A stretch of 64,000 nucleotides of DNA from an uncultured Chthonomonas sp. (lineage in GTDB: Bacteria > Armatimonadota > Chthonomonadetes > Chthonomonadales > CAJBBX01): contig CAISJD010000022.1 in the NCBI GenBank assembly GCA_903885605.1, forward strand, positions 6,437 to 70,436. Reading direction: 5' to 3'. Positions 36,467-50,803 of this stretch are shown here, one piece after another (position 1 is the first letter of the stretch; the number at the start of each line of letters is the position of its first letter). The notes beneath the pieces were generated by a model. It ran no database searches and was not told the origin of the DNA. It saw only the letters and a program-made list of their open reading frames with translations. The translations under genes were made by a program, and so were the position numbers.

Positions 36467-36561
36467 TCGTTTGCGCCGGCGCCCGGTGGGGTGGCGATCG
36501 GCGTCCCATCGCGTCTGATGCGCTCGGACCGGTCGAACCTGACATCAAAGGAGTTGCCGCA

Positions 36562-39015
36562 GTGGCCTTCGCCGGCACCATCAACCTAGTCCGCCGATCA
36601 CGCTTTCGCATCCTGGCTGCCGTGCTTGCGTCCGCAGCCGCGCCTCTCTGGGCGGAGCCGTCGAAGCCGGTCGACGCTCCATCGATGCTCGCGCCCTGGC
36701 GAGCGGGGCTTGTATACGGCGAACGCAGCCGCACCGGTCCGCTGTTCATCAGCGTGGCGCGTGACGTCGGCGGGCCGTTCCCGTCAGTAGAGGGGCACTG
36801 GAGCCGCGACTGGGTGGGCGGCCGAAGGACCATCGAGACAAAGGGCGGCAGGACCATCGAACGCTGGCTCGGATATCGCCTCCCGGGCGACGGCGTGAAG
36901 GGCGACTTCGACGTCGAGGTCGAGTACACCGTGCGCAGGGGGCAGTGCGACGTGCGGACCTTCCTCACGAACCGGCTCAGCCTCGGCGTCTTCGACCTGC
37001 GCCATGTCTTCCGCGTATGCCCGGAGGCTGCGCCCACGCCGGGCCGAACCTATGTGCTCTTCGGCCTCGATGAGTGGGTCCGCGATCCCGTCGCGCTGCT
37101 TACGACCGACCGGGTTCAGCGCCTGCTGCCGACGTCCTCTACGGCGTATGTGGACGAAGGCGCAGGCCATGGGCTCTACCGCAACCGGTGCAGCCCACGG
37201 CCGATGATCTCGCTGCACTCCGAGCGGTTCGGCCTGATGGTCCACGACCTCGATCATGACAATGCAGCGCCCGGCTCCCTCCTGATCGGCTCCAACGACG
37301 GTGCGCTGGAGTTCGGATGGACCTACCGTGCGCCGGGCGAACACAAGCCGGCGAACGGGCGCAGGGGGGAGCGGACGCAGGTTGGCCCTGCCGTTCGGTT
37401 CGTCGCGTTGCCGACGAGGGCGGATCCGGAGAACGGCTGGTGGGATACGCTTCGGGCCTACAAAGCCCATGCAGCACGCGCGGGCCTTCTGCCGCGCTTG
37501 CAGATGAAGGACAGGAACGTCCCAGCAGGATGGGCTCGTGACAGCCTATCGCTTGTCGTCAACGTGGGCATGCCGGTGGCCGGCGACCCGCAGCGCCGCA
37601 TCGACCCGGGGCCGGCTGTCGAGACGATCCGGAAGATGGCGCGATTCTACCGGGCGAGCGGGCAGCGACGGTTCACCCCCATGCTTTGGGGCTGGTCCGC
37701 CGTCGGCCCTTACCGAGCCCCAGCCGGGTTCGACGCCCTCCTGGCCGGGCTCAAGGAGCTTGAGCGCGAACTGGACGTGGAGATTCGCCCGGCGGTCTAC
37801 CTGCACGGATGCATGCTCAGCAAGGCCGCCATCGGCACGCCCCTGGAGGCATGCCTGATGCGGGACCTGCGCGGCAAGCCGTTCACCTGGGGTGGCGATC
37901 TGTACAACGCCCACGCCGACCATCCTCTCTTCGTAGCGGAGATTGAGCGCACTGTGCGCGACATGGTGCGGCGCGGCGTTCGTGGCTTCTACTTCGATGC
38001 GCCGTTCGGCGAGGAGACACCGGACTACGGGCGCGATGGCGCGGATCGCGAGCACCATGTGGCCATACGCCGGATGCTGCAACGCGTAGCGCGGACCGTA
38101 AGCAGACTGGGTGGGGGCGTGATCAGCCACGAGGCGCAACGGCTCGGCCTTCCGGGGATGAAGGGCGCTGCGGGTCCGACGGTCTCCGGTGCGTACACCG
38201 TACCTTTCACCGAGGCGCTCTACCACGAGCTTGAGATACCGATCTTCTTCGGCGACCTGGCGGGGGTTCCGTACTCCCTCGCGGCTGCCGACGCACGCAT
38301 CACCGGCTCTGGCACCTACCAGTCGGACGATGACATTGTGCGGCTCGCCATAGAGGGGGCCGTCACCGGTCGCGCCGCCGTCATGTGCTTCGGCCTTGAT
38401 CGCCCGTACCACGAGATGGGCGACTCAGCCGGCTGGGCGGAGCGTGCCATGCACCGTATGGCCGCAGTGGCGATGTCGAACGGCCTGCGAGCGCGCCGCG
38501 AGCACCGCGAGCTCCGGACCGGCCGGATGCTGCCCTGCCCATCGCACGAGGCGACGGTGAACTCCGCCTATCTGCGGCCCTGGGTCTACGTTCAGAAGCC
38601 CGAGGGTGCTGCAGTGGAGATACAGAAGGACGCCATCGAAGTGCGTAGCGCTCGTGTTCCCGTGGCGTTCTATCAGGACACCGAGAGCCGCGGGCGCTAC
38701 CTGCTGGTGGTGGGCAACCCGACGCAACGCCCGATCACGATGCGCTTCACGCTGACGAGGCACGACCTGCCGGGCTGGGCAGGCAGCATGGACCGCATGC
38801 GGATCGAGAACGCCGACATCCTATCGCGCACAGGCTTGAGTGTCGAGATGTCGGTCCAGGTGCCGCCGAGTGACCTCGCGTGCGTAACGGTACGGGTCAG
38901 CGGGGAGTCGGGGACGGCGGGAGGCGGATGGGCCGGCGGCGCCGGGTACAACCGCATGGGCAATGTGCGATCGGACGCGGCGCTTAAGGAAGTGCCGAGG
39001 AGGAGTGGGCAGTGA
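36562..39015 (+). CDS. secreted hypothetical protein (about 818 aa)
   Basis: The start is GTG 36562, 8 nt after AAGGAG. The signal-like N-terminus is RSRFRILAAVLASAAAPLWA. No family recognised. It is in the same operon as its neighbours, with a GTGA overlap at the 3' end. Confidence 0.55.
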   Translation: MAFAGTINLVRRSRFRILAAVLASAAAPLWAEPSKPVDAPSMLAPWRAGLVYGERSRTGPLFISVARDVGGPFPSVEGHWSRDWVGGRRTIETKGGRTIERWLGYRLPGDGVKGDFDVEVEYTVRRGQCDVRTFLTNRLSLGVFDLRHVFRVCPEAAPTPGRTYVLFGLDEWVRDPVALLTTDRVQRLLPTSSTAYVDEGAGHGLYRNRCSPRPMISLHSERFGLMVHDLDHDNAAPGSLLIGSNDGALEFGWTYRAPGEHKPANGRRGERTQVGPAVRFVALPTRADPENGWWDTLRAYKAHAARAGLLPRLQMKDRNVPAGWARDSLSLVVNVGMPVAGDPQRRIDPGPAVETIRKMARFYRASGQRRFTPMLWGWSAVGPYRAPAGFDALLAGLKELERELDVEIRPAVYLHGCMLSKAAIGTPLEACLMRDLRGKPFTWGGDLYNAHADHPLFVAEIERTVRDMVRRGVRGFYFDAPFGEETPDYGRDGADREHHVAIRRMLQRVARTVSRLGGGVISHEAQRLGLPGMKGAAGPTVSGAYTVPFTEALYHELEIPIFFGDLAGVPYSLAAADARITGSGTYQSDDDIVRLAIEGAVTGRAAVMCFGLDRPYHEMGDSAGWAERAMHRMAAVAMSNGLRARREHRELRTGRMLPCPSHEATVNSAYLRPWVYVQKPEGAAVEIQKDAIEVRSARVPVAFYQDTESRGRYLLVVGNPTQRPITMRFTLTRHDLPGWAGSMDRMRIENADILSRTGLSVEMSVQVPPSDLACVTVRVSGESGTAGGGWAGGAGYNRMGNVRSDAALKEVPRRSGQ

Positions 39016-40850
39016 GGGGAATGCTCTTGCCGCTGATGGTTGCAGCTCTTGTGGCAGCGCGGGCGGGGCACGCCCAGCAGTCGAGGTTGTTTCCGGTTCG
39101 CAGCTTCGGCGCCGTGGCCAACTCCGGGCAGGATGCCACGGACGCGATCCGTCGAGCCATCAGCGCAGCCTCGGCGGCAGGTTCGCGCTCCGAAGTAGTC
39201 CTCGAAGCCGGGGAGTACCGTGTGGGGGCCGCCGCGCCGGCTGGCTACTGCTTCCCGGTCCAGGGAGCCCGCGAACTCACGGTCCGCGGCGCGGGTAAGC
39301 GAACCAGGATCGTCATCACGAGGCCGGACGTCGGGGCCTTCCTCTTCGGCGCATGCACGCACGTGCGGATCGCCGACCTCACGATTGACTACGACCCGGT
39401 CCCCTTCTGCCAGGGAACGGTGACCAGGGTCGATGTGGACGGAGGCTGGTTTGACCTCGAGGTCGATGCCGACAGCCCGACCCCGGATGCCCCGAACTTC
39501 ACGGGAGCCGCAGAACCCTACGGTAAGTGGGGCATGATCATCGACCGCGCCACGCGGCGCATCCGCGCGGGCACGCCAGACCACTACATGACCCCGAAGT
39601 GGGAGCGCCGGGGCGGTCGGACCTGGCGTTTCTTCACCACTGAGGAGCACTACCGACTGGGCCTGCGCAGCATGCGCGCCGGGGACGCCTATGTGCATCT
39701 CGCCCGCGGCTACGGCGGCGCGATCCTGGCTCAGGCGTGCGACGGCGTCCAGATCGAGCGGGTCACGATCCACGCCTCGCCCGGGCTTGTCGTCGGGCTC
39801 GTGGGCAACAAGGGCGAGATCGCCGTGCGGCGGCTCGAGGCGCGTTTCCTGCCGAAGTCGACCCGCCTCCTGACGGCCAACGCAGACGGCGTCCACTGCC
39901 AACAGAACCGCTCGGGGCCTGTCATCGAAGACTGCTACTTCGAGGGCATGGCAGACGACGGCGTGAACATCTACGCTCCGCCCAACGTGGTGCGCGAGGT
40001 CCGTGGCCCTACCGAATGGCTCGTCACGGCCGGCTGCCTCGTCTTGCCGGGCGAACGGCTACAGGTCCTGGACCCGAAGACAGGCGCCCTGCTGGGGCAG
40101 GTTAAGGTCACCGACGTCGCCGTCGAGGGCCGGGCGTTCCGGCTTACGGTGGACCAAGCCGTCGCCGGCGTCCGTGCAGGCGATGACCACCGGACGGCCT
40201 GCACGCTCTACAACAGGGACGCCTGCGGCGCGGGCTTCGTCATCCGGCGCAACACGATGAACGGCAACCGGCGCTACGGGTGCCTGCTGCGTGCCGGCGG
40301 CGGCGTGGTCGAGGACAACACCTTCGTCAACACGACCGGGGCCGGCGTCGTGGTTTCCAACGAGCCCGACTGGCCCGAGGGGCCGGTCCCGTGGGGCATC
40401 ACGATCCGCCGCAACCGGTTCATCGGGGGAGGCACCTGCTTGGGCTACGCCGACTCACCGACCGGTGCGGCGCTATCGGTGCGCAGTGTGCGTCTGGGCC
40501 ATGCCACGGCCATGGAGCCCGCCGTCAGCGGCATGATCGTGGAGGCGAACCTGTTCAAGGAGCGCGCCGGAACTGCGATCTACCTGGGCGCCTGCCGCGG
40601 AGCAGACGTGCGCGGCAACCGCATCACTGCCTCGGCATCGACCGGGCTGCTTCGCTCTGGCGCCTCGATCGAGGTCGACGGTTGCGCGGGCGTAACGATC
40701 ACGGGCAACGCCGTGACGGATACCCGCAAGGGCACGCTCGCCGGCCTAGCTATCGCAAAGGGAACGGCCTCCGGCGAGGCAGGGGTGCGTGCGATGGGCA
40801 ACCGATGGGGACTGCGCCGCGGAGCGCCCGATATTGCCGACAGGCGCTAG
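39012..40850 (+). CDS. secreted right-handed parallel beta-helix protein (pectate-lyase-3/GH28-like fold)
   Basis: Signal peptide (V)RGMLLPLMVAALVAARAGHA. FPVRSFGAVANSGQDATDAIRRAI is the typical N-terminal strand of this fold. Repeated NxxGxGV/I coil motifs follow (e.g. VNTTGAGVVVSN). AGGAG RBS. Confidence 0.7.
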   Translation: MRGMLLPLMVAALVAARAGHAQQSRLFPVRSFGAVANSGQDATDAIRRAISAASAAGSRSEVVLEAGEYRVGAAAPAGYCFPVQGARELTVRGAGKRTRIVITRPDVGAFLFGACTHVRIADLTIDYDPVPFCQGTVTRVDVDGGWFDLEVDADSPTPDAPNFTGAAEPYGKWGMIIDRATRRIRAGTPDHYMTPKWERRGGRTWRFFTTEEHYRLGLRSMRAGDAYVHLARGYGGAILAQACDGVQIERVTIHASPGLVVGLVGNKGEIAVRRLEARFLPKSTRLLTANADGVHCQQNRSGPVIEDCYFEGMADDGVNIYAPPNVVREVRGPTEWLVTAGCLVLPGERLQVLDPKTGALLGQVKVTDVAVEGRAFRLTVDQAVAGVRAGDDHRTACTLYNRDACGAGFVIRRNTMNGNRRYGCLLRAGGGVVEDNTFVNTTGAGVVVSNEPDWPEGPVPWGITIRRNRFIGGGTCLGYADSPTGAALSVRSVRLGHATAMEPAVSGMIVEANLFKERAGTAIYLGACRGADVRGNRITASASTGLLRSGASIEVDGCAGVTITGNAVTDTRKGTLAGLAIAKGTASGEAGVRAMGNRWGLRRGAPDIADRR

Positions 40851-40931
40851 CCTGCTCCCAAAGCGCGGCGGGGCCCGGCCGCAGCGGATGCGACTGCAAG
40901 CCTCCCGCCCGCTTGCTGCACAAGGCGCGGA

Positions 40932-40959
40932 GGAAACGCAGCCACCTCCGGCGAACGTG
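40932..40959 (+). promoter_or_regulatory. promoter-like motif GGAAAC-N16-AACGTG, 5 nt upstream of the EEP gene ATG
   Basis: Intergenic position. No Shine-Dalgarno lies between the motif and ATG 40965. Same architecture as 32926-32953 and 59277-59304. Confidence 0.3.
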
Positions 40960-40964
40960 CCGCC

Positions 40965-41918
40965 ATGGAACCTGCAAACGCCGCCTCAACGCCCTTCCGC
41001 GTCGTCACCTTCAACCTGCGCAACGGCCGCGCCGATGACGGCCCGGACTCGTGGAGCTTCCGCAGCGCCTGGGTTCCCGCCTGGGTCGCTGGACTGGGAG
41101 CCGACATCATCGGCCTACAGGAGGCGTTCCACGACCAGGCCGAGGCCGTACACGCGGCGCTACGAGGCTTCGTCCGCGCAGGAGTGGGGCGCGATGACGG
41201 GCTCCAGGCCGGCGAGTACTGCCCGCTCTACATCCGCTCAGTGCGCTTCGAGGCGTTGGAGGAGGGCACGTTCTGGTTCTCAGAAGCGCCCGGTACGCCC
41301 GGTTCCATGGCCTGGGGCGCCTCGCACCCGCGCATCTGCACCTGGGTGCGACTGCGCGACAAGGCCACCGGAGGGACGATGTGGGTCGGCAACCTGCACC
41401 TCGACCATGCTTCGCAGGAGGCCCGCCTCCGTAGCGCCGACCAACTGGCGGCCCGCGTGGTGGACTGGTCCCCCGAACCCGCCATCATCATGGGCGACTT
41501 CAACGTGGGCGAGGGCGACCCGGTCCTGGCGCGGCTGCTGCAGCCGGGCCTCCTCACCGATACCTTTCGGGGCATCCATCCGGACGCGGCAGACGCCTGC
41601 ACGTACCACGGCTTCCGGGGCGGCGAGGCAGGCGACAAGATCGACTACATCCTCGCAACGCCCGGCGTCCGCACGCACGGAGCTGCCATCATCCGCACGA
41701 CGCATCAGGGCCGCTATCCTTCGGACCACTACCCCGTGGCGGCCACGCTGACGACACAGGGGGAGAGGCATGGCTCAACGGCCTTGGAATGGGCTGTCGT
41801 CCCAGGGGAACCGAGACGCCGCGCCTCATCACCCCCACCCGCCGCCCCAGCAGGTACCATGCCTCTACATCCGCGATCGCTGGTCCGGACCGATGGCGAA
41901 GGGGAGTGCCTGCCATGA
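40965..41918 (+). CDS. endonuclease/exonuclease/phosphatase (EEP) family protein
   Basis: FRVVTFNLRNG at the N-terminus and ...YPSDHYPVAATL near the domain end. About 55 extra codons run through direct repeat L to the TGA of ctgccATGA. Confidence 0.8.
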   Translation: MEPANAASTPFRVVTFNLRNGRADDGPDSWSFRSAWVPAWVAGLGADIIGLQEAFHDQAEAVHAALRGFVRAGVGRDDGLQAGEYCPLYIRSVRFEALEEGTFWFSEAPGTPGSMAWGASHPRICTWVRLRDKATGGTMWVGNLHLDHASQEARLRSADQLAARVVDWSPEPAIIMGDFNVGEGDPVLARLLQPGLLTDTFRGIHPDAADACTYHGFRGGEAGDKIDYILATPGVRTHGAAIIRTTHQGRYPSDHYPVAATLTTQGERHGSTALEWAVVPGEPRRRASSPPPAAPAGTMPLHPRSLVRTDGEGECLP

Positions 41919-41939
41919 ATCGTCGCGAGTTCATCGGAA
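41822..41939 (+). repeat. direct repeat L (118 bp), left boundary of the 5.3-kb insertion
   Basis: Base-by-base comparison with 47273-47390 gives 113/118 identical in the same orientation. Confidence 0.9.
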
Positions 41940-42004
41940 TCCCGATGGCGGGCATAGAGGGCGGCTCTGGTCTGGTAGTTCTGGGCAGCAGGTCGGCTGG
42001 GTAG
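41915..42004 (+). pseudogene. orphaned 5' fragment of the NIPSNAP gene (first 9 codons, then unrelated sequence)
   Basis: MNRREFIG matches the start of the intact gene at 47366. The sequence diverges after ttcatcggaa and stops after 29 codons. Confidence 0.6.
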
Positions 42005-42230
42005 AGCCTTCTCCAAGGTTTGCGGGCATGACACACCCGAGCCTGCCGGCGGACGGACACGCCCGGCGGAGCTTCTGCGATGGCGGTTGCTGGCGGCCTT
42101 CGGGCTCGATCCCGGGCACAGCCACTGGATCAGGTCGTCGGCTCCCGCCTGGTCGGACGGCGCCGCCCCCACCGAGGCATCCCGTGGCAGGAGCCCGAGC
42201 GGGGGCGGCTCTCAACATGAAGACGATGAC

Positions 42231-42533
42231 CTAGAACGCCACGAAGACGTCAGTGCCGATGACCACCTGATCGCCAGAGAATCCGCCAACAGGGTCTGTC
42301 GCCGGGCGTGCGATCGCCACCTCCAGAACCGCCAGAGCAACGCCCACAACCCGCAGCGTAGGACCCCTCCCGGCCGGTCGCCAGTACCGTTCAAGCCACA
42401 CCGTGACGGTACCACACATGTGGGGCGGGAAGGGTCGGGTTCGGATGGGCTCGTTAGCCTGAATGCCGCTGAAGGTTTGAGCCCAAGTGGCCCGCGCGGC
42501 GGAACCCAGCTCGCGGCTGATTGAGTAGCACAT
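42231..42533 (-). CDS. hypothetical 100-aa ORF divergent from the kinase gene (possibly a gene remnant)
   Basis: Moderately GC3-rich with a beta-strand-like C-terminus ...GDQVVIGTDVFVAF. No RBS seen and no family recognised. Confidence 0.2.
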   Translation of the reverse strand: MCYSISRELGSAARATWAQTFSGIQANEPIRTRPFPPHMCGTVTVWLERYWRPAGRGPTLRVVGVALAVLEVAIARPATDPVGGFSGDQVVIGTDVFVAF

Positions 42534-42601
42534 CAGCCAGCTTCAGATCCAAGGGTATCCTAACAGCGAACTGCGCCTACACCAACGAGGGTAGCTGTCC
42601 A

Positions 42602-43996
42602 ATGCCGACTGCTGTGCTGAAATCGCCTCCCGCCGGAATGCCGACCAGTATCGTCCTCACCGACCGAACGCGCGTCGGAGGCGAAGGTACGGTCCACTTC
42701 AGTACTGACGGCAAGTATGCGATAAAGGTCTACCACGGGACCCCGGTCGAGCGAGAGAAGCTGCTCGGCTACGTGATGACCATCTTCCGGACGATACCCC
42801 GCGACCAAGAGCGTTACATACTGCCTCCCCTGGCTCTGGTCCAGTCGCTCAACGGGAAGCCGTGCGTCGGATTCGTAATGCGACGGGTCGAGGACAGGTA
42901 CCGCGAACTGGTGGATTTCGTACTCCACCCGGCAGCGGCGGCGGCGCAGTTCAAGCAGGGACGCACGTGGGCCGACTATCTGAAACTCGCCCGCAGCATC
43001 AGTAGCGCCCTGGTCGTCCTGCACGGCAAGGGCTGTGCGCATAGTGACATACACTTCAGTAACTTCCTGGCCGACCTCCGCGATGGCTCGGCAGTTATGC
43101 TGGAGGTCGATGGTGTCGTCGTGCCTGGGTTTCTGCCGGCCCAGGTCGCCGGGATGGCGGGTTTCATGGCGCCGGAGATCGTGCACCGGAAGGCGCGGCC
43201 CGACGAGCGCACGGACCGCCACAGCCTGGCGGTCTTGGTCCTCCATACACTGCTGTTCCGCAACGCCATGCAGCCGCTCATCGACTATGCAACAGACCCC
43301 GAGACGAGCGAGCAACTGGGCTGGGGAGAGATGGCGCTCTTTAGCGAACACCCAGCCGACCGACGCCATCGGCCAAAGGCGCTCGGCGTGCCTCTCTTCT
43401 CGCGCGGCTGCCTTAGCTACACCATGCTGACCGAGGAACTCCGCCGTCTCACGGATCAGGCATTCATGGCAGGCCTGCGAGTGCCAGACGACCGGCCGAC
43501 CTCACGTGACTGGGAGCGAGCGCTCGCTTGCGCTATCGACGAGCTGTGGCCCTGCACCCGGTGTCGGCAGTGGTTCCCGTATCCACACTGGTTGGTCCCT
43601 GCGGAGCGCCGCACCTGTCCCTTCTGTGGTATGCGGATCAGCCCCCCGGCTCCCGTCGTCCTGCGTCTCTTAGAGGAGCGCGGCAAGACCGGCTTCTACA
43701 CCACCCATCGGCGGGTGGTCTTGGGCTCTGGCTTCCGGCTGTATGCGGACGTCGTCGATCCATCCAGGGTGCCGCCGCCTTCCCGGCAGCAGGAAGGGCA
43801 TGTAGCTCATGTCGAATGGGATCGTGTCCGGTGCACATGGCGGCTGGTGAACGACAACGCCGGTGTGATCACGAGTTCAGTGGACGGCGCCCGACAGGAG
43901 GCCCGCAGGGGTTCCAGCATCGTTGTGGAGCAGGGCGCCCAGATCCATTTCGGCCCTGGCGCTAGGATGGCCTTAGTGGTGCAGGCAGGAGCGTAG
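42602..43996 (+). CDS. Ser/Thr protein kinase-like protein with a C-terminal zinc ribbon and FHA-like domain (TerY-P/YegI-type)
   Basis: Beta3 Lys context GKYAIKVY, catalytic loop HSDIHFSNFL (HxDxxxxN) and activation-segment end GFMAPE. The Zn ribbon is CTRC...CPFC. The C-terminal 110 aa follow an FHA-like pattern (HVAHVEWD..WRLVNDNAGVITSSVDG...IVVEQGAQIHFG). I place the start at ATG 42602. Confidence 0.75.
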   Translation: MPTAVLKSPPAGMPTSIVLTDRTRVGGEGTVHFSTDGKYAIKVYHGTPVEREKLLGYVMTIFRTIPRDQERYILPPLALVQSLNGKPCVGFVMRRVEDRYRELVDFVLHPAAAAAQFKQGRTWADYLKLARSISSALVVLHGKGCAHSDIHFSNFLADLRDGSAVMLEVDGVVVPGFLPAQVAGMAGFMAPEIVHRKARPDERTDRHSLAVLVLHTLLFRNAMQPLIDYATDPETSEQLGWGEMALFSEHPADRRHRPKALGVPLFSRGCLSYTMLTEELRRLTDQAFMAGLRVPDDRPTSRDWERALACAIDELWPCTRCRQWFPYPHWLVPAERRTCPFCGMRISPPAPVVLRLLEERGKTGFYTTHRRVVLGSGFRLYADVVDPSRVPPPSRQQEGHVAHVEWDRVRCTWRLVNDNAGVITSSVDGARQEARRGSSIVVEQGAQIHFGPGARMALVVQAGA

Positions 43997-44107
43997 CGGA
44001 ATCTCCGAGCAGGGCTTCCGGTTTGTGCGGTGTTCCGAGAGTACGTAGGCAGACCAGTCCGGTTGCGGCGCACCCCATGCGCCCTTCGCACGAAAGGAGC
44101 TGACCAG

Positions 44108-44800
44108 ATGACTGATTTCGATATGAACGTCACGATGGGTGAGGGTGTACGGCGGCTGCCGGTGTACCTCTTGCTCGACTGCTCCGGGAGCATGGGTGGC
44201 GCGCCGATTGAATCGGTGAAGCGCGGTGTCGAGTTGTTCATCAGCGAGGTTGCCGGGGATACGTACGCCAGGCAGACGGTGCATGTCGGTGTGATCACCT
44301 TTGCCAGCGAGGCAGCTCTCGTGACCAAGGGCCTCGTGCCCTTCGACGCCTTCACGATGCCGACCCTGAGTGCGAGCGGCACGACGGCTCTGGGTGGCGC
44401 GCTACGGTTGCTGCGGCAGTCGCTTGACTCGGACCTGAGGAAGTCGGTGCCCGGCGGCGAGAAGGGCGACTGGAAGCCACTGGTGTTCGTTCTGACCGAC
44501 GGGGCGCCGACCGATGCATGGCAGGAGCCGCGTCAGGACCTCCTCAGTCGCCAGAGCGGTAAGGTGATCAACATGATCACGGTCGGATGCGGCACCGGCA
44601 TCAATGAGGAGCAGATCAAGGCGATCGCCATCGGTCCGACCTTTCGCATGGATGCAACGGAAAGCTCATTTAAGACATTCTTCCAGTGGGTTTCGCAGAG
44701 CGTTAAGGCCGTAAGCAAGGCCGTCAGCCAGCCCGATGCCGGGCAGGCGCCGAGTGCCATGCCACAGCCCGACCCTGCGGTGATCCAGTACGTTCCATGA
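44108..44800 (+). CDS. von Willebrand factor A domain protein, TerY-like
   Basis: AAAGGAG RBS. The MIDAS motif sits in LPVYLLLDCSGSMGG, with SASGTTALGGAL and VFVLTDGAPTD further on. Confidence 0.85.
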   Translation: MTDFDMNVTMGEGVRRLPVYLLLDCSGSMGGAPIESVKRGVELFISEVAGDTYARQTVHVGVITFASEAALVTKGLVPFDAFTMPTLSASGTTALGGALRLLRQSLDSDLRKSVPGGEKGDWKPLVFVLTDGAPTDAWQEPRQDLLSRQSGKVINMITVGCGTGINEEQIKAIAIGPTFRMDATESSFKTFFQWVSQSVKAVSKAVSQPDAGQAPSAMPQPDPAVIQYVP

Positions 44801-45918
44801 AACCGGTACGGGGGAGCAGCCCGGCAGAGACGGGTATGGCACTCGGGGATCGTCCGCTCTCGATGGCGGGTGATACACATCCGGACTGGTTGGCCGCGCA
44901 TGGTCAGGTGGGTGCGTGGTCCATCGTGGCCGCTTCGGCGGTGGGCCAAATGCACCTCCGCGACCAGACCCCGCGAGACGATGCGTTCTCCGTTCGGGCC
45001 ATAGGACCCTGGCTGGCTGTGGCCGTGGCCGACGGTGCGGGTTCTATGCGTCGCTCCCGCTACGGGGCGGCCTTCGCTGTAGACACGCTTACCGAGCGGC
45101 TCCTCTGTGCCGTCTACGATGCGGCTCCGGCCGACGATCCCGGCCCTACCGGGCCCGGCCCTGACGGCCCTACGCCGCCTTCAGGTCCAGGGCTCCTGAG
45201 CCGGCTCGTGCAGTCACTGCCTGCACGAACGAAGGTCATTGACGGGCCCTCGGTTGTCGGGTTCGACGAGGTGGCCCTGCGGGAACCACGCGTCGAGGCG
45301 AGCGCCTGCTGGGCGTCCGTGGCGTGGCGCAGGCCCGACGCACCGGCACAACCTGCGGCGCTCGACATGGTAGCGCCGTCGCTCTCCGCGGCGGTCCGCT
45401 CGGCGTTTGGTAGCACGCGGGCTGAGTTGGAAGGCTATGTCTCGCGGCTCGGTGTCCCCTTGCGCGACATCCACTGCACGCTGATGTGCGTCCTGCTTGA
45501 CACTCGCACAGGCGCGTTCGCCGCCGGGCACATTGGCGACGGCCTGATCGCGGCGCTCCATCCGGGTTTCGGTGCGAGACCGGCGGTGGAGCCGCCGAGC
45601 ACCGGCAACGTGGGCGAAACCTACCTGATCACTCAGGATGGATGGGAACGGTACCTGGCGGTCACAGAGTCATCGCCCGCCGAGGCCGAAGGCATTTCGA
45701 CCCTGTATCTGATGTCGGACGGCGTGGCCGACGACTGTAGCCACCCGCCGCCGCCGGGCGTGTTCGATCGCTGGGCCCGCGATATCGATCGCGAGGTCCG
45801 CTCCTCCGCCGGCGCAGGCACGTCGGCAGTCAGGCTCGTGCGGTGGCTGGCCAACTACGAGCTCCCGGGCAGTTGGGATGATCGGACGCTGGTCGTGTTG
45901 GCGAAGGTCGGCGAGTAG
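44797..45918 (+). CDS. PP2C-family protein phosphatase (PP2C_2-like)
   Basis: ATGA overlap with the vWA gene. Motifs SAVGQMHLRDQTPRDDAF, LAVAVADGAGS, HIGDGLI and LMSDGVADD, with a Pro/Gly-rich insert. Confidence 0.8.
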   Translation: MKPVRGSSPAETGMALGDRPLSMAGDTHPDWLAAHGQVGAWSIVAASAVGQMHLRDQTPRDDAFSVRAIGPWLAVAVADGAGSMRRSRYGAAFAVDTLTERLLCAVYDAAPADDPGPTGPGPDGPTPPSGPGLLSRLVQSLPARTKVIDGPSVVGFDEVALREPRVEASACWASVAWRRPDAPAQPAALDMVAPSLSAAVRSAFGSTRAELEGYVSRLGVPLRDIHCTLMCVLLDTRTGAFAAGHIGDGLIAALHPGFGARPAVEPPSTGNVGETYLITQDGWERYLAVTESSPAEAEGISTLYLMSDGVADDCSHPPPPGVFDRWARDIDREVRSSAGAGTSAVRLVRWLANYELPGSWDDRTLVVLAKVGE

Positions 45919-45923
45919 GCCTG

Positions 45924-46727
45924 ATGGCAGAGGAGCGGTCCTGTTTCGTGGCGCCGGACCAAGCGGGCCTCCTCCTCAGCGAGCTGGCACAGGCGGTCGC
46001 CGATGGCAGGCGTCTCGGTTCCAGCGAGATCTCGCAGATCGTCTCGCGGCACCTCGCCGGTTCCTCGGATGACGCCCTGCCCCGAGTCGGCGAGTGGTAC
46101 CGGGTTCTTGTCGATGCTCCGCGCCGCAGGGGGCACGACGCTGAGTACGCAGTCGTGACGCGCCTGATGGGTCTCGGCGTGCCGGAAGCGCCGGCGTTAC
46201 TCGCTGTCAGTGTGGCCCGATCTGCCTCGATCCCCAACGCGAGTGGCGAGTCTGGTGTATCTTTGGGAGCCGCTTCGACGAGCACGCGTCGTGCCGGCGA
46301 TGGGGTGCGTTGGTCGGGGTCTGCGTACAGGTCCCGCGCGCCGAGCGCCAGTGGGGTCAGCCCTGCTTCCGCTCCTCCTTCTCCTGTGGTCGGGCGGACG
46401 GCGTCCCCTCAGCAGGGCTCGTCAGTTCGGGGCGGGCAACTTACGCGGCCTGGCAAGATTCCTCTGGCCCGACCCAACAGGCGTCAATCACGAGCAGCTT
46501 TGCTATGGCCAGTGCATATCTATGCCTTGTATATCCGGAAGTCATGGTCAATCATGCTGAGTGTGCCACTGCTGAGTCCTCAAACTTCAGGCGACATTAC
46601 CAGCACATCTGATGCTATTAGATATGGTGCCATGTTAATAGTCACTGGCGCTGTAATGTGGCATCCTTTACGGTTGACATGTATAATGCTATATACTATC
46701 TACACATTCATCAGAGGAATTATATAA
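45924..46727 (+). CDS. hypothetical protein; only the first ~95 codons look confidently coding
   Basis: Starts 5 nt after the PP2C stop. GC3 is high up to about 46200. A Ser/Pro/Gly-rich low-complexity stretch follows, then a hydrophobic tail encoded in the AT-rich segment. The true 3' end is unclear. Confidence 0.35.
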   Translation: MAEERSCFVAPDQAGLLLSELAQAVADGRRLGSSEISQIVSRHLAGSSDDALPRVGEWYRVLVDAPRRRGHDAEYAVVTRLMGLGVPEAPALLAVSVARSASIPNASGESGVSLGAASTSTRRAGDGVRWSGSAYRSRAPSASGVSPASAPPSPVVGRTASPQQGSSVRGGQLTRPGKIPLARPNRRQSRAALLWPVHIYALYIRKSWSIMLSVPLLSPQTSGDITSTSDAIRYGAMLIVTGAVMWHPLRLTCIMLYTIYTFIRGII

Positions 46728-46728
46728 T
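46701..46728 (+). promoter_or_regulatory. sigma70-like promoter candidate (TACACA-N16-TATAAT) in the AT-rich cassette
   Basis: TATAAT is at 46723-46728 and the -35-like TACACA at 46701-46706. The GCACAT...ATGTGC inverted repeat around palindrome TGCGCGCA (46735-46758) lies just downstream. Confidence 0.3.
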
Positions 46729-46785
46729 GTGCACGCACATGCACTGCGCGCAATGTGCTATAGAGAATCGGGTGATAGTGCTCCC

Positions 46786-47106
46786 ATGATAACATTAATC
46801 ATGTTAGGCATTGCATTGATCGTTCTGGTATTTATGGTGGGGGCGGCATTGGTGGCAGGCTTGGGGTACGCCGCCATGGCTCTGCTGGGGATAGCATGGT
46901 CCTTCAGTGATAATATTCCCAGGATCATAACAATTATTATATTGTACGGTGCCCCGATTGGTGCCGTAGTGGCTGTAATCTATTACTATTTTGGTTGGTT
47001 GCCAGCCCAAACTCGAATGCTCGCATGTGCAGCAATAGCGGTTGCTCACGTTGTTGGCATCATCTGGACCCTTCGGCGACCCGTGCCGGCCAAGCCAACG
47101 AGGTAA
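46786..47106 (+). CDS. small multi-pass membrane protein (about 106 aa, 3-4 TM helices)
   Basis: The translation is strongly hydrophobic and periodic: ITLIMLGIALIVLVFMVGAALVAGLGYAAMALLGIAW, RIITIIILYGAPIGAVVAVIYYYFGW and MLACAAIAVAHVVGIIWTL, with a basic tail RRPVPAKPTR. The start is ATG 46786 (or GTG 46729). It is encoded in DNA of about 46% GC. Confidence 0.45.
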   Translation: MITLIMLGIALIVLVFMVGAALVAGLGYAAMALLGIAWSFSDNIPRIITIIILYGAPIGAVVAVIYYYFGWLPAQTRMLACAAIAVAHVVGIIWTLRRPVPAKPTR

Positions 47107-47272
47107 GTTATCTTCAGGCCTGTTCGCAGTATGGCGGATTGGCGGTTCGGCGTGCGCCAACTGGTGCTGCGCCCCGCGTCACATCGGCGGCGCCGGCTCC
47201 TTCGGTCTTCTCGCGGATTGGGCGGCTGGAGATCGGCATTCTTCTAGCCCATCGCCTGTTCGCTTCTCCCGC

Positions 47273-47390
47273 CGCCTCATCACCCCCACCTGCCGCCCCA
47301 GCAGGTACCATGCCTCTACATCCGCGGCCGTTGGTCCGGGCCGATGGCGAAGGGGAGTGCCTGCCATGAATCGTCGCGAGTTCATCGGAA
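47273..47390 (+). repeat. direct repeat R (118 bp), right boundary of the insertion
   Basis: 113/118 identical to 41822-41939. It contains the ATG and first 9 codons of the intact NIPSNAP gene. Confidence 0.9.
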
Positions 47391-48154
47391 GCTCGGCTGT
47401 GGCCGTGGGAGCCGCGGGGGCGTTGACGCTGGAGCCTGAGGCCGAGGCGGCCGCCGTGATCCGGGAGGTCTACGAACTGCGGCACTACAGGCTGAAGCCG
47501 GATGCCGCGCCGGACGGCCTGCTGGACTACTTCGCCAAGGCGCTCATTCCCGCCGCAAGGCGGCAGGGCCTCGGTCCGGTGGGCGTCTTCACGGAGCAGA
47601 AGCCCTCGGCCGAACCCACGGTGACGCTGCTGCTGGCCTTCCCGGCCATCGCTGCATTCTGGGCGTTCGCCGACAAGCTGGCGGCGGACAAGGAGTACCA
47701 GAGCGCCGGCGCGGCGTATGTCGGCGCGTCGCCCCAGTCGCCCGCCTACGCCCGCATCGAGAGCTCGCTGCTGGCCGCCTTCGCCGGCATGCCCCGCGTC
47801 GAGGCGCCTGATACGGCCAAGGAGCGCCAGTTCGAGCTGCGGACCTACGAGAGCCACAGCGAGGCCGCCCACGCACGCAAGGTGGGAATGTTCAACGACG
47901 GCGAGATCGCCATCTTCCGCCGCTGCGGCCTGGCGCCCGTCTTCTTCGGCAGCACGCTCATCGGCACGCGCCGGCCGAACCTGACCTACATGCTCACCTA
48001 TCCCGGCCCCGCCGAGCGCGCCGCCGCATGGGGCAAGTTCATCAACGATCCCGAGTGGAAGACGCTGAGCAAGACCCCGGGCCTCACGGACCCCGAGGTG
48101 GTCTCGAAGATCACCAGCGTCACGCTGATCCCGGCCGCCTGCTCGCAGATCTAG
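47366..48154 (+). CDS. NIPSNAP family protein with a TAT-type signal
   Basis: MNRREFIGSSAVAVGAAGAL is twin-Arg-like. Two NIPSNAP-type repeats (VYELRHYRLKPDA and FELRTYESHS). Confidence 0.8.
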   Translation: MNRREFIGSSAVAVGAAGALTLEPEAEAAAVIREVYELRHYRLKPDAAPDGLLDYFAKALIPAARRQGLGPVGVFTEQKPSAEPTVTLLLAFPAIAAFWAFADKLAADKEYQSAGAAYVGASPQSPAYARIESSLLAAFAGMPRVEAPDTAKERQFELRTYESHSEAAHARKVGMFNDGEIAIFRRCGLAPVFFGSTLIGTRRPNLTYMLTYPGPAERAAAWGKFINDPEWKTLSKTPGLTDPEVVSKITSVTLIPAACSQI

Positions 48155-48177
48155 CGGGCGCGGCCGGGTCCGGCGCC

Positions 48178-49059
48178 ATGCACCCACTCGCACGCCTATC
48201 GCCCTTCATACGCCTGGCGCACCACTTTCCCGCCGGTCCGGACTGGCGTATCCAGCCGCGCGTGATCTTTGACCACCTGCTCCTCTACACGCGCGACGGC
48301 CACGGCAGGCTGACGGTCGGCGAGGAGGTACACCGCATCGGTCCGCGGACCCTCTTCGTCGTGCCGCCGGGCGTGCTGCACGAGACGACGCACGACCCCG
48401 GCTCGCCGAACCTGATGTACAACCTCCACTTCGACTTCATCGAAGAGCCGGACAGCGCCTCCGTGCCCGTGAACCTCGCCACGCCCGAGGAGACGCTGGC
48501 CCGGACCGAGTGGCTACGGGCGCCCTTCGCCGGGGATGACCGCCTGCGGCTCCCCACCCGCATCGAGGGCTTCGCTCCGGCCCTCTACGAGACGCTCTTC
48601 TTCACCATCCTCGGATGTGCCCGGAGCCGGGCGCCCGCCGACCTGCTGCAGGCCAAGGGCGCCATGCTGCAGCTACTGGCGCACCTGTACCAGGCGCACT
48701 CCTATGCGGGCCACCGGGGCACCGCGTCGGCCGCATCGCTCCAGCGGCTCGACCAGATGCCGGCCCACATCGAGGAGCGCCTGGCCGACGAGCTCTCCGT
48801 GGGTGCGCTGGCCGCCCTATGCAACATGAGCGAGACGCACTTCCGGCGCTCGTTCCGCGCCCGGTTCGGCCGCTCGCCGGCCGACTACGTCGTGCAGTGC
48901 CGCCTGGCCCGCGCCCGCCACCTGCTCATCTACGAGAACCTGCCGATCTGCCGCATCGCTGAGATGACCGGCTACCAGAGCGTCCACTACTTCACCCGCG
49001 CGTTTGCGGCGGCATTCGGCGAACCTCCGGCGGCCTATCGCGCGCGTCGGTCCGCGTGA
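48178..49059 (+). CDS. AraC family transcriptional regulator (cupin plus HTH)
   Basis: N-terminal cupin-like region (VIFDHLLLYTRDGHGRLTV...FVVPPGVLHE). The C-terminal AraC HTH pair reads ALCNMSETHFRRSFRARFGRSPADY...IAEMTGYQSVHYFTRAF. Confidence 0.85.
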   Translation: MHPLARLSPFIRLAHHFPAGPDWRIQPRVIFDHLLLYTRDGHGRLTVGEEVHRIGPRTLFVVPPGVLHETTHDPGSPNLMYNLHFDFIEEPDSASVPVNLATPEETLARTEWLRAPFAGDDRLRLPTRIEGFAPALYETLFFTILGCARSRAPADLLQAKGAMLQLLAHLYQAHSYAGHRGTASAASLQRLDQMPAHIEERLADELSVGALAALCNMSETHFRRSFRARFGRSPADYVVQCRLARARHLLIYENLPICRIAEMTGYQSVHYFTRAFAAAFGEPPAAYRARRSA

Positions 49060-49083
49060 TGCCCCTCCGGCGGTTGGCCGAAA

Positions 49084-49116
49084 TGTGCAAACGCCTGGTC
49101 ACCTGATGCAAAGACC
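49084..49116 (+). promoter_or_regulatory. direct repeats TGTGCAAACGCC / GATGCAAAGACC with 21-bp phasing (candidate AraC-type binding site)
   Basis: The TGCAAA cores are at 49086-49091 and 49107-49112, between the AraC gene and the ThuA-like operon. A -10-like CAGAAT lies at 49134-49139. Confidence 0.3.
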
Positions 49117-49176
49117 GGACCCACTGTCGCCGCCAGAATAGGGGCACGTGGGCTACCCCCGCCGTCAGGAGAGATC

Positions 49177-49824
49177 ATGACCAGTGCCGCCGACCGTGCG
49201 CCGCTCCAGGTTGCCGTGGTGACAGGTAACCATCCGTTCGACGTGCCCGGCTTCCACCGCCTCTTCGGCGAGATGCCCGGCATCGACGCCTATGTGCAGG
49301 ACCTCGAGAACTGGGTGCACGACTGGGGCCAGGTGCGCCGCAGCTACGACGCCGTCGTCTTCTACCACTTCCACCAGGAGACGCCGCAGGGCGCCTTCGC
49401 CGAGGCCGTCGAGGAGCTCGGCGCGTCCGGCATGGGCGTCGTCGTGCTGCACCACGCCCTGCTGGCGTGGCCGCAGTGGCCCGAGTGGTCGGCGCTCTGC
49501 GGCATCGAGGACCGCTGCTTCGGCTACCACATGGGCCAGCAGGTCCGGGTCGAGGTCGCTGACCCGGACCACGCCGTCACCCAGGGCCTGACGGCGTGGG
49601 AGATGGGCGACGAGACCTACACCATGGCGGACGCCGGTGAGGGCAACCGGGTGCTGCTCACCATCGAACACCCGCTCAGCATGCGCACGGCGGCCTGGAC
49701 CCGAACGCACAAGGAGGCGCGCGTCTTCTGCCTCCAGTCCGGGCACGACCAGGCGGCGTGGGGAGCGCCCGGATTCAAGACGGTGCTGCACCGGGGCATC
49801 CTCTGGGCGGCGGGCCGGATTTGA
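49177..49824 (+). CDS. ThuA-domain protein
   Basis: About 215 aa with ThuA-like layout: VAVVTGNHPFD, YDAVVFYHFH, GMGVVVLHHAL, WPEWSALCG. Confidence 0.65.
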   Translation: MTSAADRAPLQVAVVTGNHPFDVPGFHRLFGEMPGIDAYVQDLENWVHDWGQVRRSYDAVVFYHFHQETPQGAFAEAVEELGASGMGVVVLHHALLAWPQWPEWSALCGIEDRCFGYHMGQQVRVEVADPDHAVTQGLTAWEMGDETYTMADAGEGNRVLLTIEHPLSMRTAAWTRTHKEARVFCLQSGHDQAAWGAPGFKTVLHRGILWAAGRI

Positions 49825-49855
49825 CGGTGGGCTTCAAATCGATCGGAGGATAACC

Positions 49856-50803
49856 ATGCGAGCGCTTGTAACGCGGATGCGGCCGGACGGGCGGCGGGAG
49901 AAGCTCCTTGTCCACGACTGGCCGGATGCGCCGCATCCTGCGGGCAACCAGGTGCGGACCCGGACCCTGTACAGCGGCATCACCAACGGCACCGAGCGCA
50001 ACGACCTGCTGGGCGGCAACTATGCCACGCCCGACGACCGCCTGCCCGCCGGCTGGGGATACCAGAACGTCGGCGAGGTCATCGAGTGCGGCCCTGACTG
50101 CAGGCGCCTGGCGGTCGGCGACGTCATCTACTCCAGCGCCGGGCACGACGAGTTCACGACCGTGGCCGAGGACTGGCTCCTCGTGAAGCTGCCGCCCGAG
50201 ATCGACCGCAGGGAGGCGGCGCTCTTCGGCATGGCGAGCGTGGCCATGCACACCTGCCGCAACGCCGACCTGCGCATGGGCGAGCGGGCGCTCGTGGTGG
50301 GCGCCGGCTTCATCGGCCAGGTGGCCGCGCAGATCGCCGCCGCCATGGGCGCCAGGGTCGGTATCTGCGACATCGACGAGCAGCGGCTCGACAAGGCGCG
50401 GGAGATCGGCGCCGCCGACTGCGCCTTCAACAGCGGCGGCGACGGCTGGGCCGCCAACGTGCCGTCCGCCTCCTTCGACGCGGTGATCGACCTCGCCGGC
50501 GTGCCCGGCATGGAGGATCGGCTCATCGAGGCGGCCGCCATGCGCGGTCGGGTGTTGCTCATCGCCGGACGCCACAAGGTCGAGTACACCTTCAACACCG
50601 GCCAGGGCCGCGAGATCGTCATCAAGCAGAACAGCCACTTCGACAACGGTGACCTGGCCATGCTCTGCGGGCTCGTCGCCAGGGGCGCCGTGCGGATCCA
50701 GCCCCTGCTCCAGCGCGTGGCGCCTGTGGCTGAAGCTGCCGGCATCTACGACACGTTGCGCGACGACCCGAACCAGCTCGGCGGGACGGTGTTTGAGTGG
50801 TAA
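49856..50803 (+). CDS. zinc-binding dehydrogenase (MDR family)
   Basis: GGAGGA RBS. Rossmann motif VVGAGFIGQVAAQIAAAMGA. MDR-like N-terminal domain. Confidence 0.7.
   Translation: MRALVTRMRPDGRREKLLVHDWPDAPHPAGNQVRTRTLYSGITNGTERNDLLGGNYATPDDRLPAGWGYQNVGEVIECGPDCRRLAVGDVIYSSAGHDEFTTVAEDWLLVKLPPEIDRREAALFGMASVAMHTCRNADLRMGERALVVGAGFIGQVAAQIAAAMGARVGICDIDEQRLDKAREIGAADCAFNSGGDGWAANVPSASFDAVIDLAGVPGMEDRLIEAAAMRGRVLLIAGRHKVEYTFNTGQGREIVIKQNSHFDNGDLAMLCGLVARGAVRIQPLLQRVAPVAEAAGIYDTLRDDPNQLGGTVFEW

Follow-up and report, generated by a model that had tools for sequence, protein, structure and literature searches.

How does a chromosome come to hold 5.3 kb of accessory DNA between two copies of one 118-bp sequence, directly in front of a conserved operon, if that DNA brings no recombinase with it? 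The question is raised by a stretch of 64,000 nucleotides from an uncultured Chthonomonas sp. of the Armatimonadota (the whole 64-kb stretch is referred to as the window, and positions are counted from its first letter), in which the segment lies between a gene of the endonuclease/exonuclease/phosphatase (EEP) family and an intact gene of the NIPSNAP family (Table 1). Comparison with sister strains answers the first part of it, the segment being a strain-specific gain of 5.3 kb of accessory DNA at the 5' end of the NIPSNAP operon in a freshwater, Chthonomonas-like member of the phylum. As to how it arrived, we see about an even chance that it was captured from a related haplotype in a recombinase-independent manner anchored by homology, either by homology-facilitated illegitimate recombination or by a single crossover of the Campbell type; the donor, the order of events and the route of recombination are what we infer.

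The two copies of the repeat (41822-41939 and 47273-47390) were compared by pairwise alignment and with a repeat finder, and both agree with the original prediction that they lie in direct orientation, are identical at 113 of 118 positions without a gap and enclose an interior of 5333 bp (41940-47272). The repeat finder can extend the pair to 123 nt at 94% identity, only three of the five bases beyond the 118 bp matching, and within 38-51 kb this is by far the longest repeat; in the 64-kb window BLAST finds two copies only, the next best match being of 16 nt. Similarity reaching well beyond 118 bp, which had been named as the sign that the prediction was wrong, is not seen, as the flanks outside both copies are unrelated to each other. 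A match of this quality is far above chance and the likeness stops at the edges of the repeat. The left copy is joined to EEP in filled and empty alleles alike, and within it the TGA of EEP (the reading frame ends at 41918) overlaps an ATG at 41915 that now opens a dead-end open reading frame (ORF), while the ATG of the right copy at 47366 opens the intact NIPSNAP gene of 262 aa, both of which had also been read correctly at the outset. The EEP-repeat-insert junction is bridged at 100% identity by three contigs assembled from other samples (L002, L003 and L004), and the insert-repeat-NIPSNAP junction by a contig of an independent assembly that is 99.9% identical (L001). Since both junctions are bridged by independent assemblies of other samples and assemblers, the arrangement is no assembly artefact.

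The allele without the insert is found in sister strains. The exact EEP protein occurs on filled contigs only, and the cluster of EEP proteins at 98% identity (P0001) is found on seven contigs from other runs, through which the closer strains and their empty-site alleles came to light. On five of these (L050, L051, L053, L054 and L056), which are independent metagenome contigs of sister strains with about 98% nucleotide identity, NIPSNAP comes immediately after EEP, which has the same 317 aa, the two genes overlapping by 4 bp and the repeat being there in a single copy; the other two (L052 and L055) end at or within the repeat. When one of them is aligned to the window by BLAST, window 40115-41937 corresponds to L053 1-1823 (98.2%) and window 47273-50332 to L053 1708-4767 (98.1%), so that the overlap of the two matches is one repeat copy and the homology breaks exactly at window 41937/47273. 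The claim that 5.3 kb was inserted into an EEP-NIPSNAP junction with an ATGA overlap thus has real empty alleles behind it, and the possibility that relatives lack such an allele, which had been set down as counting against an insertion, does not apply. The further claim that the second copy restores the 5' end of NIPSNAP is likewise borne out, the right copy being joined to the intact gene and the empty site having one copy. Filled and empty alleles were recovered only in different strains, about 2% divergent, and from different sample series, and among the 14 contigs that carry the kinase gene of the insert there is no circular, excised or alternative junction. An empty site was also sought in the nearest species of the GTDB (L005 and L006, below) and was not found, neither having EEP upstream of NIPSNAP.

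The nature of the repeat becomes apparent from these two species. A conserved NIPSNAP-AraC-ThuA-ADH block begins with NIPSNAP, and the closest relatives at the species level in GTDB are two metagenome-assembled genomes (MAGs) of Armatimonadota with about 85% nucleotide identity, L005 from Lac Pavin and L006 listed as 'uncultured Chthonomonas sp.'. Synteny with both begins at 47261, some 105 bp before the NIPSNAP ATG, and extends for at least 9 kb downstream, and upstream of NIPSNAP both have divergent RCC1/Big_3_5 surface-protein genes and no EEP gene. Three lineages whose upstream neighbours differ share a conserved stretch of some 105-120 bp before the ATG (47261-47390 in the window, 9879-10027 in L005, 9880-10027 in L006). 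As this leader is conserved in relatives without EEP, the 118-bp repeat is, on comparative grounds, the conserved NIPSNAP leader together with the first nine NIPSNAP codons. The TGA, the overlapping ATG and the nine NIPSNAP codons that the prediction placed in the repeat are there, whereas the 31 codons it ascribed to EEP do not hold up as conserved EEP sequence. Fully invariant blocks are found in the leader, e.g. AGCAGGTACCATGCCTC, and its predicted hairpins show a few compensatory changes, including a C-G / U-G / U-A series; Rfam gave no match with E below 0.3 for the repeat and the insert. The leader could be a structured 5' leader or a region bound by a regulator, the latter being suggested by the AraC-family regulator encoded just downstream.

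What lies upstream of the leader varies between all three lineages, this slot having one content in the window, another in L005 and a third in L006. L005 has its own insertion of 4.6 kb relative to L006 (5302-9878), which ends at the same upstream edge of the leader, has a lower GC content (55-65%) and encodes a large secreted-looking protein without a Pfam domain; it was considered as a second repeat-flanked case and dismissed, for although the insertion is real, direct repeats are absent from its flanks. In the L006 species 14 contigs agree in having the L006-type arrangement, one of them coming from an assembly (ERZ1426771) in the same ENA number range as several of the assemblies with filled alleles.

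If the repeat belongs to NIPSNAP, the end of EEP requires a different reading. The conserved domain of EEP ends near aa 262-272 and the final ~45 aa form a lineage-specific tail running into the NIPSNAP leader; homologues cover about 80% of the query and all end some 10 residues after the SDHYPV motif. This C-terminal extension (codons ~272-317, window 41780-41918) has no counterpart in other EEP homologues, and nowhere do the strains differ more than in the tail region, 9 differences being counted within the 64 bp of 41735-41798. EEP itself has no close orthologue outside the species, the next homologue being 58% identical, and a scan of JGI metagenomes returned distant homologues only, with at most 43% identity. 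From the read-through of the tail into a conserved leader it follows that the ATGA overlap with NIPSNAP is probably incidental, and it looks like a result of that read-through rather than an old coupled operon junction; of the translationally coupled junction first proposed, the overlap is present and the coupling as an original feature of the operon is not upheld. EEP was placed against the NIPSNAP leader earlier in the lineage, an event from which both the '31 EEP codons' and the ATGA coupling resulted as by-products. The genes to the left of the junction (36463-41918, an ORF of 850 aa, a beta-helix protein and EEP) have a GC content at third codon positions (GC3) of 0.81-0.85, and the NIPSNAP-AraC-ThuA block (47366-49824) one of 0.90-0.93. 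It may be that all of the left block was acquired earlier and was in its turn brought up against the NIPSNAP leader.

Machinery that could have moved the insert was sought within it and around it. There is no integrase, transposase or excisionase among the ORFs of the insert according to Pfam, NCBIfam, PHROGs and PADLOC, and six-frame Pfam scans of the unassigned parts (41880-42620 and 45900-47332) show no recombinase or remnant of one, so that what the original prediction said of their absence holds after family and six-frame scans. Recombinase domains were found neither in the large ORFs of the preceding 28 kb nor in the downstream genes. Terminal inverted repeats are lacking, the best inverted match between the ends of the insert being 10 nt, and blastn in 'distant' mode gave no match to phages and a single match of 143 nt, in the VWA gene, to plasmids. 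Of the marks of a site-specific element the flanking repeats and the uninterrupted target are present and an encoded recombinase is absent; of those of a transposon or insertion sequence, namely a transposase, terminal inverted repeats and a short target duplication, none is seen, the duplication here being 118 bp. Two further candidates were examined and rejected. The possibility that an orphan ORF of 267 aa is a new and hidden recombinase was considered; homologues of it are absent from 1.84e9 cluster representatives, and its GC3 is low. A tRNA gene was considered as the target, the only ARAGORN call (tRNA-Ser GGA, 91 nt, 45557-45647) lying inside the PP2C ORF without an Rfam tRNA match and probably being a false positive. 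The insert looks like no self-mobile element and resembles a piece of chromosome.

Where such a piece would have come from is suggested by the two ends of the insert. Close to the left end lies a relic of a secreted-protein gene, the rest of which is missing from the insert, and which by blastn is 84% identical over 144 nt to L006:3102-3245 and by tblastn 57% identical over aa 1-60 (E 6e-16). Its Big_3_5 domain is assigned from the Pfam match of the orthologous L006 protein, whose gene has the same orientation and lies 6.7 kb upstream of NIPSNAP. The identity of 84% is the level of the orthologues in the adjacent core block (84.4%), and a fragment of a gene that neighbours NIPSNAP would be hard to explain for DNA of random source. 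At the right end, 9 of the 12 bases to the left of the right copy (47261-47272) agree with the outgroup leader, as opposed to 1 of 12 beside the left copy. At repeat position 56 the right copy has the C of the outgroups, predicted to form a C-G hairpin pair, where the left copy and the empty allele have a derived T, the pair being U-G with T56 and, once position 68 had changed as well, U-A. Because the right copy keeps the outgroup C56, it is not a simple copy of the resident leader.

The distribution of the differences is also informative. All five mismatches between left and right copy fall in repeat positions 19-68, positions 69-118 being identical, as would be expected of a crossover in the right-hand third; at position 117 both window copies have a derived A (A117), which is absent from the empty allele and the outgroups. 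Compared to the empty allele the left copy differs at 27, 55, 68 and 117 and the right copy at 19, 27, 56, 59 and 117, a partition which, if the copies are read as attL (B-P') and attR (P-B'), is compatible with a crossover near positions 60-116, though with exceptions and at too few sites to carry weight. Homology between donor and recipient at one end is provided by the 118-bp leader, and the right copy has both outgroup-type (C56, 12-bp flank) and recipient-type (A117) states. The relic fragment, the flank of the right copy, position 56 and the mismatch distribution together point to a related haplotype and away from a foreign, self-contained element. The first 120 bp after the right copy have 6 differences where ~2.2 are expected, a raised divergence that was considered as a sign of a donor tract and not accepted, as the equally unconstrained region to the left of the left copy varies just as much.

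Homology-facilitated illegitimate recombination and Campbell-type capture have both been described for naturally transformable bacteria. Applied here, the donor DNA would stem from a related haplotype in which the segment was already immediately upstream of NIPSNAP, and the recipient would be a cell with the empty EEP-NIPSNAP arrangement. The right end of the donor DNA would pair with the leader and 5' end of the resident NIPSNAP and be joined by host homologous recombination, the crossover probably falling within repeat positions 69-118, and the left end would be joined illegitimately at 41939/41940, which is 27 bp inside the resident NIPSNAP copy; joints of this kind typically form at a microhomology with the donor. 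The shared homology begins to the left of this joint, and for that reason the 118 bp in common would be duplicated rather than replaced. The same product could result from a circularised fragment through one Campbell-type crossover in the 118 bp, or from a replication template switch. The right copy would then keep NIPSNAP expressed from its own leader, the left copy would be left with a stub of 29 codons, and the repeats could now permit loss of the segment by RecA, and its re-gain through a circle. A comparable route, homology-facilitated illegitimate recombination on a conserved upstream region, has been proposed for the displacement of effector-immunity cassettes of the type VI secretion system in Vibrio cholerae (PMC5361080). 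Shared with that case are a single conserved anchor (here the NIPSNAP leader and 5' end) with non-homologous cargo beside it, no dedicated recombinase, and a resident sequence that is displaced but retained (here the orphaned NIPSNAP start); it differs in that here the full duplication of the 118-bp anchor is kept, and in that the present case is known from sequence alone, in an uncultured member of the Armatimonadota.

Several points weigh against such a capture. A donor haplotype, with the kinase, VWA and PP2C triad of the insert directly upstream of NIPSNAP and without EEP, was not found in a search that covered kinase homologues, kinase-bearing contigs, members of the 90% NIPSNAP cluster and the contexts in L006-like species; the nearest kinase homologue outside the strain is 64% identical and homologous triads elsewhere are in unrelated contexts. 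The informative characters are few, being one site, a 12-bp flank and one 144-nt fragment, and the probability that all five mismatches fall in the first 68 of 118 positions is ~0.06. The mismatch pattern is also compatible with an exchange between attP and attB or with drift after duplication, and an integrase may act in trans from outside the 64 kb, or have been lost by deletion. Finally, some 300 bp (41940-42245) between the illegitimate joint and the relic fragment are left unexplained, from which it follows that the donor region would already have been rearranged.

The original prediction had offered two mechanisms, homology-mediated capture, to which the evidence leans, and a site-specific element with an attL/attR pattern, which is less favoured. 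In the latter, a remnant or non-autonomous element would have been integrated by a tyrosine or serine recombinase at an attB in the NIPSNAP leader by way of an attP with its own 118-bp copy, the integrase having since been deleted or acting in trans. Such an element would resemble the cis-mobilisable elements (CIMEs) known from Streptococcus thermophilus, which derive from integrative and conjugative elements (ICEs) and carry the attachment (att) cores of the ICE; islands and prophages that restore the 3' ends of tRNA genes, or the ends of some coding genes, encode an integrase next to one att site. With CIMEs and other att-flanked islets the insert shares repeats at its ends, an empty site in relatives, accessory cargo and the lack of genes for recombination or transfer inside, and with the gene-end elements an interrupted gene that is restored by a terminal copy on the side of the element. 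The exactness of the empty site fits this, the imperfect repeats (5 of 118) are as expected if attP and attB differ and are likewise seen in gene-end elements, and the left end (41940-42520), being scrambled and non-coding with a truncated gene, fits internal deletions that could have removed an integrase; the lower GC composition of the insert compared to its host may be added. Yet CIMEs derive from identifiable ICEs and gene-end elements keep their integrase beside the att site, whereas here no parent element or integrase family can be identified, and in the insert there is no gene for recombination, excision, conjugation, replication or phage functions, nor a six-frame remnant. Similarity to phages or plasmids is confined to the short VWA match, homologous triads in other genomes are not beside integrases, and no excised junction was met among the kinase contigs. 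Moreover the repeat here is the leader of the target gene, and the outgroup C at position 56 of the right copy is not predicted; nor would a foreign element be expected to have, as the insert does, a positional orthologue of the relative's NIPSNAP neighbour and outgroup-type leader beyond the repeat. We consider a site-specific origin unlikely, though it is the main rival of the capture.

It may also be asked whether the polarity should be reversed, with the filled state the older and the empty allele produced from it by RecA-mediated deletion between the repeats. Recombination between them is mechanistically easy and would give exactly the single-copy allele that is observed, part of the interior seems, from the relic Big_3_5 fragment, to be positionally ancestral, and the restriction of filled and empty alleles to different strains and sample series is in keeping with it. 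A deletion would nevertheless leave the second NIPSNAP start and leader after EEP unexplained, so that an earlier insertion or duplication is needed in any case, and the composition of the insert is atypical. The empty allele, with T56 as in the left copy, G117 as in the outgroups and a T27 of its own, is no obvious recombinant of the window copies, and a reversal is to our mind distinctly unlikely. Hardly credible is a transposition with an unusually long target-site duplication, or an artefact of assembly from a repeat loop or a mis-joined circular molecule. A direct duplication of the target does flank the insert, and contigs of other assemblies often break inside it, but a transposase and terminal inverted repeats are missing, 118 bp is far above the duplications known from staggered cuts, and copies that differ at five sites, of which the right one has outgroup-type states, were not copied from one template at insertion; the contigs that bridge the two junctions independently include MEGAHIT-style contigs with k=141, which is longer than the repeat. 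A bolder version of the capture from a related haplotype is that the segment is a 'homology-armed' cassette without a recombinase, with a portable copy of the leader (NIPSNAP -94 to +27) that is looped out and re-inserted by host RecA in strains that have the leader, so spreading a possibly anti-phage module of TerY-P type through the lake population without mobility genes, the upstream edge of the leader being a dedicated and recurrent insertion slot in the clade. The recurrence is suggested by the three different contents that three lineages carry at this edge; the cassette as a whole we hold to be a long shot.

Table 1. Features at the junction of EEP and NIPSNAP, with positions in the window
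Feature	Position	Strand	Remarks
EEP family gene, 317 aa	40965..41918	+	Pfam PF03372 E 1e-19, aa 14-255
Left copy of the 118-bp direct repeat	41822..41939	+	94 bp of NIPSNAP leader (read as EEP tail and TGA), then ATG and 8 further NIPSNAP codons
Dead-end ORF, 29 codons and stop (MNRREFIGIPMAGIEGGSGLVVLGSRSAG, then stop)	41915..42004	+	opened by the orphaned NIPSNAP start of the left copy; six-frame translation
Inserted segment, 5333 bp, absent from sister-strain contigs	41940..47272		GC 63.8%, window 68.8%
Left end of insert, no coding signal	41940..42245		six-frame Pfam scan empty; blastn and tblastx against all fetched loci empty
5' relic of a gene for a secreted Big_3_5-type protein (upstream region, signal peptide, ~60 codons)	42246..42443	-	orthologue L006:930-3221(-)
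Ser/Thr protein kinase, 464 aa	42602..43996	+	alternative start TTG at 42521; C-terminal CxxC...CxxC zinc ribbon; beta-rich C-terminal domain
VWA-domain protein, 230 aa	44108..44800	+	Pfam VWA E 8e-15; DxSxS motif (DCSGS) of the metal ion-dependent adhesion site (MIDAS); alternative start GTG at 44030
PP2C-type phosphatase, 373 aa	44797..45918	+	Pfam PP2C_2 E 1.5e-26; start overlaps VWA stop (ATGA)
Orphan ORF, 267 aa	45924..46727	+	3' third enters the low-GC stretch; GC3 0.62, neighbours 0.77-0.93
Low-GC stretch, down to 43% in the 69% GC window	46350..47106	+	promoter-like hexamers; small multi-pass membrane ORF
Right copy of the 118-bp repeat	47273..47390	+	functional NIPSNAP leader, ribosome-binding site (GAAGGGGAG), ATG and first codons
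NIPSNAP-family gene, intact, 262 aa, twin-arginine-like N-terminus	47366..48154	+	Pfam PF07978 E 1.6e-19

The genes that were gained differ in composition from those of the operon they precede, the GC3 of the insert being 0.77-0.79 (0.53-0.62 at its right end) against 0.90-0.93 in the NIPSNAP operon. The first of them encodes a protein kinase that matches the Pfam Pkinase family with E 1e-6, under the gathering score, and whose AlphaFold2 model, made with 40 homologues, has a pLDDT of 93 and Foldseek matches to kinase folds in the PDB with E~1e-9. K42, D149, N154, D170 and the cysteines 321, 339 and 342 are invariant in the 40 homologues, cysteine 318 being conserved in at least 90% of them, and the C-terminal beta domain is confidently modelled in the predicted structure. 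The family is tight, of about 465 aa and patchy over several phyla, with a best non-self match of 64% identity; its members (P0122-P0234) are scattered over Armatimonadota, Atribacterota, Streptomyces and others, and JGI names the family 'DNA-binding helix-hairpin-helix protein with protein kinase domain'.

Together with the VWA and PP2C genes the kinase recalls a known set. In the TerY-P triad a VWA protein resembling TerY and a PP2C phosphatase are combined with a Ser/Thr kinase whose C-terminus bears a zinc ribbon (Anantharaman et al. 2012, summarised in PMC10542128), and the yegL-pphC-yegI genes of E. coli are an analogous trio (bioRxiv 10.1101/819920), which the trio of the insert resembles. 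By its predicted domains and modelled kinase the cargo is a kinase/VWA/PP2C triad of TerY-P type that matches the published definition, all three components being present, in one co-directional cluster and with the zinc ribbon conserved after the kinase domain. It differs in its gene order, kinase-VWA-PP2C, and in having no linked Ter, restriction or CoCoNuT genes. PADLOC gave no match for VWA or PP2C and weak matches of the kinase to PD-T4-6, MkoA and mad6, and the hidden Markov models of the experimentally defined TerY-P anti-phage system (of the Gao et al. 2020 type, as modelled in PADLOC) do not recognise the triad. The same kinase-VWA-PP2C order is found in a Chthonomonadales MAG; the other homologous triads are in unrelated contexts and none adjoins an integrase, and at one locus (L058) a gene for an IS200-type Y1 transposase is about 1.3 kb upstream of the kinase homologue.

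Downstream of the triad lie an orphan ORF and the low-GC stretch. For the ORF of 267 aa there is no match in Pfam, NCBIfam, PHROG or PADLOC, and among 1.84 billion cluster representatives it finds only itself; it may not be a real gene and is probably not a conserved one. A membrane ORF in the low-GC stretch, which starts at 46729 or 46786 and ends at 47106, has no matches in the family libraries either, and a promoter scan gave sigma-70-like hexamers at 46658-46728. Contigs of other assemblies tend to break in the low-GC region (46186-46922). One of them, L003, is otherwise 100% identical to the window, but its last 33 nt (6521-6553) diverge fully after 46185 and match nothing else fetched; a second contig from another sample, of almost the same length and gene layout, is also listed. 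Either the end of L003 is chimeric, or it hints at another haplotype in the right third of the insert.

In terms of mechanism nothing new is proposed, nor is this a new kind of element, and as a gene gain at the level of strains it is fairly ordinary. It does appear to be a clean natural example, with filled and empty alleles both recovered, of an accessory cassette of signalling or defence type that entered a chromosome without an integrase, the only trace of the entry being a duplicated stretch of the leader of the target gene, and it comes from stratified freshwater lakes and a poorly studied, uncultured phylum, the Armatimonadota. It is a caution for island finders that demand a recombinase, and equally for annotators, as the 'translationally coupled' EEP-NIPSNAP junction and the 45-aa tail of EEP are by-products of rearrangement. 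For this group of bacteria it is possibly an example of a variable slot beside a conserved leader.

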